Shown here one piece after another: positions 600 through 38,040 of a stretch of DNA of 64,000 nt. Within the stretch, counting starts at the first letter, position 1. The number at the start of each line of letters is the position of its first letter. The notes beneath the pieces are model-generated. The model did no database searches, had not been told where the DNA came from, and was given only the letters and a program-made list of their open reading frames with translations. The stretch lies in the NCBI GenBank assembly GCA_964016885.1, contig OZ024743.1, positions 242,916,001 to 242,980,000 on the forward strand, written 5' to 3'. The position numbers and the translations under genes were made by a program. This DNA comes from Eledone cirrhosa. Taxonomy: Eukaryota.

Positions 600-763
600 A
601 AAATACAATATGTTGAAAGGGTAATACACTAGAGAGAGAGAGAGTGTGCCATCAATTACCCTTTCAACATATTGTATTTTAAAGACCTCAGGATTCCTTC
701 TCCTTTGAGCACATAATTTACAGGGAATAACGAGGGTCTATGGCTCCGTTAATTTATCGTGAC
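600..763 (+). repeat. Short fold-back element: 26-bp inverted repeat plus unpaired 3' extension
   Basis: AAAATACAATATGTTGAAAGGGTAAT (600-625) and its exact reverse complement (655-680). About 80 bp of unique tail follows before (TA)n. Confidence 0.7.
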
Positions 764-1016
764 ATATATAAATATATATATATATATATATATATATATA
801 TATATATATATATATATATATATACACACACATACACACACACACACAATCACCATCAGTTTATGTCTATTTTCCATGATGGCATGCGTTGGACAGATTG
901 TCATGATCCAAGACTGGGGAAGTCAGGGAACCACTCCATAGTCATACCTTCTGTTTTGGGCATGGTTTCTACAACCGAATGTCCTTTCTAACACCAACCA
1001 CTTTAAAGTATGCCAG

Positions 1017-1329
1017 AGATAAAGACTCCCTTCGGTCACGAATGACCATGGGATTTACACCTAGAAAGCTCTCCTCCGAGGTGCAAGTCCAGCAGTCGCC
1101 TATACATACCAGTCTCTCCTCTCCACGCCTCCGATGTTGTCCAAGGGAAAGGCAATGGCCGATACAGCTTGGCACCAGTGACATCGCAACTCATTTCTAC
1201 AGCTGAATGAACTGGAACAACATGAAATAAAGTGGCTTGCTCAAGAACACAATGCAGAGCCTGGTTGGAGAATCGAACTCACTATCTCACGATTGTAAGC
1301 TCGACGTTCTAACCAATAAGTCATGCGCC
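1017..1329 (-). mobile_element. tRNA-derived SINE (long-body family)
   Basis: Minus strand has a tRNA-like head (B-box GAGTTCGATTC) and a TTCTTGAGCAAG-CACTTTATTTC central motif. The body is shared with 32358-32670. Confidence 0.7.
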
Positions 1330-2119
1330 AGTGATAACACCTTACAGAATGTACTTGGTGCAATTTCATTTTAAACAACATACTGGGTGCATTTTATCAT
1401 GGTACCAGTACAACTTTACAGAATGTACTTGCTGTATTTTATCGTGCAACCAGCATAACTACTTATTGATAGTGAGAAGGGAGTGGTGTTGTTAGTAGTG
1501 AGAAAGAGTGAGTAGTGATGGGTGGTAGTGAGAAGGAGTTTATAAAAATGAAGAAAAGTTAAGATGAACTAAGAGAGGTAGAAAGAGAGAGAGAAGTTGT
1601 CTAACCCATGCTAGTGTGGAAGATAGATGTTAAACGATGATGATGATGATGACAAGAGCAGAAGGAACACTGAAAGATGAAAAAGAAAGAAAGGGACAAT
1701 AGAGTTATCTATCCCCAGGTCAGGCTGGTACTACTATTAAGGTTAATTAGGCAACCCCCTAGGGTGTTGACCTCAGAAAGGTGCATTATTCAACCATAAA
1801 GGTTGTATACATTTGTTTAATCCAATTAAATATATAATAATTTCCTACCATCTTTAAATAAATCACTAAATATCTTTGCTGCATAGAAACATTGGGGAAA
1901 TATACAAAGTCGTGAGTAACGTCATATGATGTTATAATCTGTCACATAATTTGTGGTGGCTGAGTGTGGACTGTGTAGTGGAAAATGTGGGCCTAGTAAT
2001 TTTTTAAATTCGATCAAAGCAAAGAGTGTCACAAACTAGGTTTATCAGCTTACCTAACTTTAAGTTGAAATTATTTTATTTAGGAGAATGAGGCATATAA
2101 CTGGGAAAAGGGGTCATAC

Positions 2120-2278
2120 ATTGTAAGACTGGTCTATGGCATTAAATACCCAGGCACTCATAGTAAGGCTAGCCTAAGGCACTAAATATCCAGGTTCACA
2201 CAGTAGAGCTAGATTAGTGTGATAAATACACAGGTGTCCATTGTAGGGCTATCCTAGGGTACTAAATACCTAGGTAAC
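2120..2278 (+). repeat. Degenerate ~40-bp tandem repeat, ~4 units
   Basis: Recurring tagtaaggctagcctaaggcactaaatacccagg-like unit. Confidence 0.5.
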
Positions 2279-2284
2279 TGGGCA

Positions 2285-2510
2285 TAGTGTATCTAGAACT
2301 ACATTATCCTATGTGTCCTTTCCTTTTGAAGATGGTAAGGTGTAGTTTGAGGGAGATTTGGCTACTATTTCTAGCAGGTCGAGCAGCCACGTAGACACTC
2401 ACTTGTTGGAAAAAAAAAGTTGCTGTTTAGTCCCAGGTCAATTTGAAGCAAGAAACTGCATGGTGCCATTCCAGTCATGACCATCCTGTCTTCTTTTCTT
2501 TTCAGGCATA
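2285..2510. mobile_element. Fragments of an abundant ~210-bp interspersed repeat ending in (AAC)n
   Basis: Motifs GAGGGAGATTTGGCTRCTATTTCTAGCAGG and GTTGTTTAGCCCCAGGTCA. These recur near 2900, 15580, 16000, 26160-26790, 40360-40660, 41020, 52260-52430 and 53355-53550. Confidence 0.65.
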
Positions 2511-35241: not shown

Positions 35242-35672
35242 TAATGTTTTATGTGTTGTTTGAAATATTTTAAATGTTCAATATGTTGTTTAGAGTTGTT
35301 GATTCACAACTTCATTATATAATGATTTTTTTGCCAATTTCCAACTGTTTTGGGGGTCATATTCATTGAAAACACATCAAAAACAAATTTCACATCAAAA
35401 GTAACCTCAAAAGTGAAAATATTCTAGTACTTCATTTACATAGAATTTTGAAGTTGTAAGCCAAGCCCCCATTCTACCATTGATTTTTTTTTGTCATATA
35501 TTTCTTGGCTTATATATATATATATATATATATATATATATATACTGTATATATATATACTATATATATATATATATATATATATATATATATATACAGT
35601 ATATATTTGTATACAAGCCAAGAAATATGATAAAAACAACAATAGTAAAATGGGGGCTATATATATATATAT

Positions 35673-35889
35673 ATCATCATCATCATCGTTTAACGTCTAT
35701 CTTCCACGCTAGCATGGGTTTAGACGAGAATTGTCCCACTTGAGGCAAGATTAGTTGTCTTGCTCGTATAGGACTGTCTGGCTTGATTTCTACGGCTGGA
35801 TGCCCTTCCTAACACCAACCACGTTTACAGTGTGGACTGGGAGGTATTTACCGTGTTACCTACATGACCACATTACAGCGTGGACTGTA
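35673..35889 (-). mobile_element. RTE 3' UTR fragment
   Basis: Reverse complement of 23684-23900 with divergence, flanked by (TA)n. Confidence 0.8.
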
Positions 35890-37116
35890 TATATATATAT
35901 ATATATATATATATACAAAAAACACCCAGCCCGTCCTGCATGGTGGTAATGCTGGTGCCACAAAAAAAATGTACTCAGTCTACCATGTAAGGTGATCGTA
36001 TTGGTGCCACAACAAAAACGTAGCCAGTCTATGATGTAAGAGGGTTGTACTGGTGACATGACAACAAGCAGCTAATCACCGGTTAAGGTGGTTAGTATTA
36101 GAAAGAGCATCCAGCCATAGAAAGCCAAGCCAGAAACAGATCGTATGAGCAAGACGTAATCACCTGACCTGTCTGGCCTCATAATGTGACAACCCATTTA
36201 ATACATGCAGGTACAGAAAATAGATGTGACAAAGATCAGGATTTCATTATTAAAATTGCATTTTATATTGCTTAACAAAAGGTTCTTAAATTAAATTATT
36301 TCAGAAAATTTTAATTGAAATAGGAACCCTTTAAAACAGGTGATTCCCTTTCATACAATCAGAGCCAGGTTTGGCCAGGATGGTATTAAAAGGGTTAATT
36401 ATCAGAGACAAGCATGAGGCAGGTGACTAGAAACTGTTTCACTTGAAGGTTTTATATCATGAGAGAGCCTTCTAGACTTTCCCAGTTAAAAAATGCCAGC
36501 CACTTAGTAGAGATTTCATTTTAGAGATTTCCTTCTCAAAGTCATTTTACGGCACATTCTAACAAACATTGGCTTTTCTACATCACAGTTGGTTTTTTGG
36601 AAATACCTATACCGGGTTGGTGTCTGATGTAGTATAACTCACCTCATGTTGACAAACTATCTTTGAGATGGAGAAATGTGTGGGTGTGTGGGTATGTGTG
36701 TGTTGGACACAGCATGGTCGAAAGATTAAGAACTTCATTTCGCAAACAAGGTCTCAGGTTCAATCCCACTGCATGGCACCTTGGGCAAGTACCATTTACC
36801 ATAGCCTAAGGTCAACACAAGCATTGTAAGTGAAATTGGGTAGATATAAACAGCTTAGAACTTCAGGTAGACTGTACTTATAATTCAAAGGGTTAGCCAT
36901 GTCACACACTGTGTCATGTGAAATCTCCTTGAGAATTACACTGAAGGAGCAAGAATCAGCCACTGGCATATTAATTTCAGAAACAGGCTGTTACAGTGGT
37001 TGAATCTGACAGAGGCCCATTTCATTTCATTCCAATACTAGTTGTATATCAGTAGCTATAGTACAATAAGAGCTGACGTTGGGTAGTTTATATCTAGGGT
37101 GGTGTAGGGTTCTATA

Positions 37117-37315
37117 TGAGAGTCAGTTGAAAAGTTCATAAGTTGACCAAGATACTCTCATGGAATGATTAAATTGCGTTTATTTTTCAACATCGTGCCT
37201 AGAGAGCAACAATCCAATTATTCAGAAGTGTTGAAATTAATGCATGCAAGATTTCACAGTTCTAGCATCACTCCTTCATAATCAGTCAGCCTATGAGCTT
37301 TTCAACCCACTCTTG
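37117..37315. mobile_element. Mariner-like MITE
   Basis: Imperfect ~30-bp TIRs GAGAGTCAGTTGAAAAGTTCATAAGTTGAC / GTCAGCCTATGAGCTTTTCAACCCACTCTTG, with TA on the left. Confidence 0.6.
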
Positions 37316-37893
37316 GGTGGTTATATGTAGGGTGATGTAGGGTGGCTGATGTGTGATTATGTGAAGTGAAATGAAATTTAGGTACTACCATTAAGGTCCC
37401 CTAGGAATCCACCTAGGGTGCAAACTTCTAGGGGGTGCATCACAGTTTTATACAAATGTCTAGAGTTAAATCAAGTATATAATAACTTCCTGTGATTAAA
37501 AATCTTTTTCCAGAGCAGTTTGTGGAAATATCAAAAAGTATATGGTTTGGTGTGGGTGAGAGGGGATTTTGTAGTGGCGGAAAATAAGTATTCTGCACAT
37601 GATCAAATAGTTGTGATATAAAATTCTGGCAATACATTGTCCTTGAGCAAGACACTTTATTTCACAATGCTGGCAGAAGTGGATTGAACCTGTAATTCAA
37701 AAGGCCAAACTTGTCCCACACTGAATCATGCAGAATCTACCTGAGGGTACGTTTTAGTGGTATGCTCAGGCACTTGCACAACAATTTGTAGAGCAGACTG
37801 TTCTGCTGATTGATCAAATAGAACACTGATCGTCGGAACTGACAGAGGTGCAACATACAAACACACAACACACACACATACATACATATATTG

Positions 37894-38040
37894 TTTGAAA
37901 TCATCAGGCCATTCCTGATGATTTCAAATGAATGAAACAGTTCTAGTCCTGTAAAAGTCATTTCTATATGAAATAAATATATACCATCTCTACTAATGTA
38001 TTGAGTACCTTATTTAACTGTGTTTTCCTTCGGTTCTGTA
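37894..38040 (+). mobile_element. HHR family B element with 5' fold-back
   Basis: TTTGAAATCATCAGG-CCATT-CCTGATGATTTCAAA hairpin, then GAAT-GAAA-CAG-TTCTAGTC-CTG-TA. The tail is homologous to 8266-8325. Confidence 0.7.

Follow-up and report, generated by a model that had tools for sequence, protein, structure and literature searches.

The 64,000-nt stretch of the Eledone cirrhosa genome analysed here (GCA_964016885.1, contig OZ024743.1, positions 242,916,001 to 242,980,000 of the forward strand; hereafter the window) contained five short fold-back elements, designated by position as E1 (600), E2 (7847), E3 (14326), E4 (23947) and E5 (37894). Their parts, and those of related Penelope-like elements (PLEs), are listed in Table 1.

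Five fold-backs in the window

Self-BLAST of the window revealed inverted repeats with a short loop or none at 599-681 (E 4e-6), 7847-7922 (E 5e-11), 14326-14578 (E 1e-101), 23947-24008 (E 7e-9) and 37894-37928 (E 0.002); folding against 60 dinucleotide shuffles each gave z-scores of -5.2, -9.0, -31.9, -3.6 and -3.3 for E1 to E5, respectively. All five fold-backs were beyond chance, and the layout of arm, short loop, arm, tail and microsatellite given in a preliminary description of this DNA was confirmed. Every element had an unpaired 3' (right-hand) tail of ~55-85 nt. A microsatellite lay within 17 nt of 10/10 element ends, and 8% of other window positions lay within 20 nt of one; the ends had been set partly by the microsatellites, so this proximity is not an independent test. 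The inverted arm of E1 extended to ~655, the true start of E4 lay at ~23908, upstream of the earlier 23947, and the arms of E3 were identical at 118 of 122 aligned bases.

Table 1. Positions of the fold-back elements and related PLE copies in the window
Feature	Position	Strand	Remarks
E1 inverted arm	599-655	-	3' end of a ~545-nt non-coding PLE-type unit, without hammerhead
E1 sense arm	656-681	+	
E1 tail	682-763	+	TTGAGCAC motif at 705
E2 inverted arm	7847-7881	-	
E2 sense arm	7882-7922	+	Type I hammerhead parts (GAAA, stem III, cleavage triplet); TTGAAAA core missing here
E2 tail	7923-7982	+	
E3 inverted arm	14326-14451	-	Intact minimal type I hammerhead: TTGAAAA core from 14417, GAAA, palindromic ACCGGT stem III
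E3 sense arm	14457-14578	+	Hammerhead core at 14487; GAAA changed to GAAG
E3 tail	14579-14640	+	
E4 inverted arm	23908-23976	-	Full hammerhead layout, core mutated to CTAATGA
E4 sense arm	23977-24016	+	CTGATGA (23980), stem II, GAAA; ~29 nt including stem III deleted
E4 tail	24017-24082	+	TTGAATAC motif at 24040
E5 short inverted arm	37894-37908	-	
E5 sense arm	37911-37975	+	Laid out as a type I hammerhead, with CTGATGA at 37915, GAAA at 37934 and the end of the cleavage triplet at 37953
E5 tail	37976-38042	+	TTGAGTAC motif at 38001
E5-family solo copy	14641-14717	-	Begins just before core; without inverted arm or tail
4.6-kb head-to-head PLE pair	9292-13880	.	1.35-kb arms (96.6%), tail on right
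Hammerheads of 4.6-kb pair	9353-9396 and 13697-13743	- and +	
GIY-YIG-region open reading frame of 4.6-kb pair	11671-12327	-	

Hammerhead motifs

Hammerhead parts were present in four elements, as claimed earlier, namely E2, E3, E4 and E5. The E2 copy held the GAAA half only, and the E1 copy had no ribozyme, that of its family lying ~200 nt upstream of the break in the window copy. A type I layout with paired stems was seen across copies of all five families, the core being CTGATGA in E1, E4 and E5 and, in E2 and E3, the U3-A8 variant TTGAAAA; this variant is known among minimal PLE hammerheads, according to the accessible part of PMC4209133. The hammerhead calls were made because paired stems recurred across family copies, and not because of database or pattern scans: Rfam gave no hammerhead match in the window at E<=1 (its matches were microRNA models on microsatellites), and a loose core scan was weak alone (5 matches against a shuffle mean of 1.9 and maximum of 6 in 30 shuffles).

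Free folding of the E5 and E3 start regions gave a lowest-energy fold that was not the hammerhead, and the imposed E5 hammerhead fold was unfavourable (+12.5 kcal/mol); ribozyme activity as a monomer is therefore doubtful on the modelled energies. The turn of the hairpin, described earlier as lying at or next to the hammerhead core, did so in E4 and E5; it fell inside the motif in E2, was only approximately placed there in E3 (31-35 nt upstream of the core), and the description failed for E1.

Copies and joints of the five families

For each genome search 40 copies were scored and 30 were fetched, so that the samples are best-scoring copies. First-look candidates in the 3.0-Gb genome numbered 1,900 for E1, 681 for E2 and 1,599 for E3; tail-weighted queries gave 458 for E4 and 580 for E5, and a core query gave 2,347 for E5. 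Judged by sequence, E1 to E5 are each one copy of their own distinct high-copy PLE family. An adjacent inverted arm was found in 16/30 (E4), 16/30 (E5, tail query), 19/30 (E5, core query), 13/30 (E2) and 16/30 (E3) sampled copies. The target was (TA)n. The outer arm ends were fixed at two points per family, and the inner ends (joints) varied between copies in all five families; even near-identical young E5 copies mostly differed in their joints. When breakpoints were compared with the hammerhead by family, as had been proposed, they were clustered in E3 and E5 and spread in E1, and no family had a fixed joint except for 7/48 E4 loci.

These seven E4 loci, on five contigs, had one common joint and arm-specific changes; the window E4 was not among them. 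They bear on the earlier proposal of an amplifying class of hairpin mini-elements, by which non-autonomous units would be copied from fixed hairpin masters and later central deletions would blur the joint. Palindromes are known to lose their centres, and together with the fixed outer ends and the seven E4 loci this speaks for such copying. Against it, joints mostly differ among young E5 copies, whose tail can be on either arm, about half of the copies are solo, long pairs (0.2-17 kb) end at the same points, and the E4 branch hairpin was part of a longer element with a long common 3' extension. The proposal is improbable, and a class defined by one joint per family was rejected. The common joint and arm-specific changes of the seven loci imply that re-copying of a hairpin within a larger element can occur. 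At L003, L010, L018, L030, L189, L193, L197 and L008 of the E4 side branch, a fixed hairpin opened a longer CT-rich element with a variable right end. Loci L151 and L152 had ~7 kb in common, including an L1/Tx1-type long interspersed nuclear element (LINE) at the same position.

An origin of the arms as DNA-transposon terminal inverted repeats, that is, from miniature inverted-repeat transposable elements (MITEs), is highly improbable; the preliminary description had named membership of such repeat families as one finding that would overturn its view. Short inverted repeats in TA-rich targets would suit MITEs, but the tail was asymmetric, about half of the copies were solo, the inner ends were variable, hammerheads were present, fixed symmetric terminal inverted repeats were not common to all intact copies, and the link of E5 to a reverse transcriptase (RT) and GIY-YIG reading frame (see below) already contradicts this origin for E5.

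The features of endonuclease-containing (EN+) PLEs that were found in these families were 5' truncation with an adjacent inverted copy, a terminal-unit hammerhead of type I (seen by pairing in each of the five families) and an optional tail between two fixed 3' ends, the tails being longer than published ones. The E1 family consisted of a non-coding, hammerhead-bearing unit of ~545 nt, present as head-to-tail tandems at L100, L104 and L116; such tandem units were not seen in the E2-E5 families.

Positions at which the arms stop

Arm ends were counted from the first base of the hammerhead core. The E1 ends ranged from -243 to +233 (~480 nt) with no pile-up, and 10/30 passed the core (L116 and L120 being one tandem locus). 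In the E3 family, 25/30 sense ends lay at -20 to -53, a pile-up ~40 nt upstream of the core and ~30 nt outside stem I, and 5/30 read on, to -85 or beyond. The E4 ends lay between -10 and +68 and none further among 30 tail-selected and 18 core-selected loci, for which the references reach only -12. For E2, 25/30 sense ends lay at +2 to +30, inside stem II, in a query-biased sample; long E2 forms exist, with 70-130 nt of upstream DNA in common.

The E5 ends in the first 60 loci resembled those of E4. An exact 32-mer gave 476 matches, including a young subfamily with long copies; the idea that E2, E4 and E5 had tiny templates only was overturned for E5 and E2 by these larger pattern samples. Among the first 100 of 190 matches of the young subfamily, 36 arms stopped within 4 nt of the A of AGATTCC, and 64 continued upstream into TACCC, crossing stem I. 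Long arms were fetched in 66 cases; among the 65 that could be measured, 7 ended between -18 and -100, within the next ~95 nt. The comparison of 36/100 stops within 4 nt of one base with 7/65 in that interval shows that the stop is a spike of ~80-fold and not a gradient.

In E5, E4 and E2 this wall coincided with the start of stem I, which agrees with the earlier stalling proposal. In the form considered here, RT would stall or be released at the outer end of stem I and the complementary DNA (cDNA) would snap back or join a partner, the TATA-like words described below being incidental. A few copies had the exact snap-back shape, with the inverted arm fused through stem I (E4, L006 and L190; E5, L343 and L328), snap-back after completion of cDNA is documented for R2 (PMC11371274), and the E2 ends inside stem II also fit. 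The proposal failed for E1, where the ends were unclustered, and for E3, whose stop lay outside stem I, and it does not account for the 64 young E5 arms that read through or for the 4/8 partial tandems of an abundant 713-aa family that passed its ribozyme region (read by eye). It predicts neither a non-genomic G nor a TATA box at constant distance in diverged copies. Stalling is an unlikely, though not negligible, explanation of the hairpins.

TATA-like words and an extra G at the stop

In young E5 copies, TATAAAT started 30 nt before the A of AGATTCC (the putative +1) and was the sole such 7-mer between -157 and -1. Among three older E5 candidate long copies, one of which aligned to the young form at 74%, two had TATAAAT at -37 from the core, compared with -38 in the young form, and the intervening sequence differed. 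In E3 long copies, CATAAAA lay at -32 from the AGATG landmark, where short copies stop, in 17/21; 9/30 were without the landmark. The words GGCGCGAAA (24/30) and CACGTGAC (25/30) were repeated upstream of CATAAAA in E3; we take them to be E2F and E-box sites. A putative TATA was noted in a rotifer pseudo-long terminal repeat (pseudo-LTR) in the accessible part of PMC3846280.

The genomic base preceding +1 in E5 is C. The 48 short arms included 14 that began at +1 or at the base before it and whose preceding base was unexplained by the partner; this base was G in 11, T in 2 and C in 1, which gave P 1e-6 at the genomic G frequency and 1e-3 at 35% G. At L306 and L310 both arms can carry the extra G. 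Extra G at full-length 5' ends of L1-driven insertions has been ascribed to cap copying (PMC3287187; PMC11702581; accessible parts).

Two 3' start points and tails

Young E5 arms ended 66 nt (36 arms, without tail) or 134 nt (32 arms, with tail) after +1, directly on (TA)n. Exactly one arm was tailed in 13/13 distinct short pairs, and the listed long pairs were alike; the tail was found on either arm, and long pairs of 0.2-17 kb had the same ends as short ones. In vitro, Poseidon of the green anole has two internal RT start sites bounding the tail and extends both strands (accessible part of PMC11167929), and by this analogy the two-end pattern of E5 matches two start sites with extension of both strands.

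Self-priming on an antisense template has been proposed for rotifer PLEs from palindromes at inverted junctions (PMC3846280, accessible part) and would also make a head-to-head repeat. In E5, each of the two arms has its own fixed 3' starting point, both end at one sense-strand +1, and the extra G can be present in both (L306, L310), which leaves self-priming very improbable here.

The word TTGARYAC occurred in the tails of E1 (29/30), E2 (22/30), E4 (16/30) and E5 (23/30) and in 0/30 of E3, and also just before the open reading frame (ORF) of the 713-aa family; it may serve in recognition. The short reversed stretch at 7769-7790 of the window resembles an E4-type tail and contains the TTGAGTAC word.

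Long copies, ORFs and the 4.6-kb element

The preliminary description had linked the fold-backs to PLEs and to the 4.6-kb element, and both points were right. At four loci (L323, L299, C2 and C3), non-coding DNA of ~3.4 kb connected the E5 ribozyme end with an ORF that contains RT motifs, GIY-YIG and a cysteine linker. Pfam matched its GIY-YIG at E 2e-4, falling slightly short of the curated cut-off, and the ORF was 51% identical to a 713-aa RT-EN ORF. Linkage of the terminal unit to one ORF holding both RT and, C-terminally, GIY-YIG, as in EN+ PLEs, was found in the E5 group only. From sequence, the domain order and cysteine linker fit a clade with C-terminal EN, candidates being Neptune, Nematis and Hydra. 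The long forms of E1, E2 and E3 were non-coding as far as followed (up to 9 kb for E3, with no linked ORF), and E1-E4 gave no ORF linkage; an ORF nested next to L100, considered as an E1 partner, belonged to the separate 713-aa family. When sequencing runs were searched with an E3 long copy, no RNA run was among those listed; the matches were two runs from a single study, with shares of 0.32 and 0.20.

The 713-aa family had intact ORFs in very many copies and 35,739 first-look candidates. The 4.6-kb window element was a pair of the same kind as the hairpins, with one arm reaching the GIY-YIG region (42% to the 713-aa protein). Pfam gave nothing in the window GIY-YIG-region ORF or in the 713-aa ORF, a PDB sequence search gave no match, and a homologue search gave 1,206 relatives without usable names. 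At L252-L261, the abundant PLE with intact 713-aa ORFs had the hammerhead core CAGAAGA, and a relative in L008 had CTGAAGA. L305 carried an E5 derivative in which the ORF end was fused directly to the ribozyme unit in both arms of the pair.

Proposed origin of the hairpins

Each hairpin is probably a single insertion of an abundant PLE family, consisting of two 3'-end copies head to head with a varying joint, and the turn that often lies just before the hammerhead is likely to correspond to the RNA's capped 5' end. From a pseudo-LTR promoter (TATA at -30 in E5, CATAAAA at -32 in E3), transcription would begin 8-45 nt upstream of the ribozyme core. The PLE protein would nick both target strands and initiate reverse transcription at two positions within the RNA, 65-135 nt downstream. 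The two resulting cDNAs would run off the cap or stop slightly short and would then be joined, often by microhomology of 1-6 nt. The short products lack a promoter and so would not copy themselves. Run-off at the RNA start is well supported for E5 and E3; E2 and E4 fit by analogy only, and the model does not apply to E1, which is an ordinary random truncation.

Several points weigh against this origin. The copies were top-scoring or pattern-selected, not random, and the key counts came from a young relative of the window E5 copy, not from its own subfamily. Position +1 of E5 coincides with the outer base of hammerhead stem I, which means that a structural stop predicts the same coordinate. Among short E5 arms reaching +1, G preceded in 22/38, and about half of these 22 are explicable by microhomology with the partner; two of the 11 extra-G cases may be local duplications. 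Common upstream DNA was seen in 0/7 E4 solo arms and no E4 long form was found, the E2 long forms had no clear TATA, and the tested Drosophila virilis promoter is TATA-less (PMC2377424). Among the tailed long E5 arms listed, none continued past the tail into the 5' untranslated region or ORF, and the source locus was unseen.

Other features of the window

A third E5-family copy, older and 74% identical to L056, lay at 8218-8380. A sixth fold-back at 39745-39972, absent from the preliminary description, was a 228-nt near-perfect palindrome (99%); (TA)n occupied its middle and its ends, and no hammerhead core was seen. Tandem arrays occupied 3165-6419 (65 copies of 50 bp, 94%) and 18692-20752 (99 copies of 21 bp, 89%), and an RTE-like LINE 3' fragment with an RT end and a PHD finger lay at 22495-23507.

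Comparison with known systems and implications

The comparisons that follow hold for the accessible parts of the cited papers. The EN+ PLE insertion units of Craig et al. 2021 (PMC8557442) and Arkhipova et al. 2013 (PMC3846280) are likewise heavily 5'-truncated, with an inverted and also 5'-truncated copy directly abutting the 5' end, an optional tail at either end, a pseudo-LTR hammerhead, (TA)n targets and, at the C terminus, GIY-YIG with a cysteine linker. The tails are ~55-90 nt here and 30-40 nt there, and a pile-up of both arms at a TATA-defined start is not reported in those parts.

Green anole Poseidon in vitro (Frangieh et al. 2024, PMC11167929) resembles the present families in its two internal RT start sites bounding the tail, the nicking and extension of both strands, AT-rich targets and a ribozyme near the 5' part of the RNA. 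It belongs to another clade, and the accessible text analyses neither the joints of head-to-head pairs nor bases derived from the cap. Minimal PLE hammerheads (Cervera and de la Pena 2014, PMC4209133) are also minimal type I motifs with a palindromic stem III and the U3-A8 core variant (E2, E3), mostly single, with pairs 100-700 bp apart on opposite strands, but the available sections give no breakpoint mapping or promoter link. The E1 family, a non-coding hammerhead unit in head-to-tail tandems, resembles non-LTR retrozymes (PMC7229834; bioRxiv 10.64898/2026.07.22.740005), although its unit is ~545 nt compared with 150-450 and E2-E5 are not tandem. L1 twin priming (PMC11702581, PMC3287187) shares two primed cDNAs joined by microhomology and the extra G at full-length 5' ends; L1 inversions join adjoining, not overlapping, RNA parts, whereas both arms here copy the same stretch.

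The anatomy is thus that of an ordinary, published PLE insertion product, and the families are new. The mechanism of PLE head-to-head repeats is stated as open in the accessible parts of PMC8557442 and PMC3846280, and in a literature search of limited coverage no paper connected the joints of PLE inversions with a TATA-defined start or with a cap G. The breakpoint map is useful in that it yields, from young copies, a testable prediction precise to one base, covering the start site, the cap G and the single tail of each pair, and it joins the in vitro two-start-site result to genomic insertions. For annotators it is a warning that such hairpins are neither MITEs nor microRNA precursors.

With somewhat better than even confidence, we regard the short hairpins as traces, kept in the genome, of Penelope reactions that ran to completion on capped sense RNA, with both strands primed at separate internal start sites and both cDNAs reaching the cap. 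If true, this would account for the flood of minimal hammerheads, both solo and paired, in animal genomes and would settle the sense-versus-antisense question for head-to-head pseudo-LTRs, and PLE transcription starts and the shared TTGARYAC recognition motif could be mapped from DNA alone.

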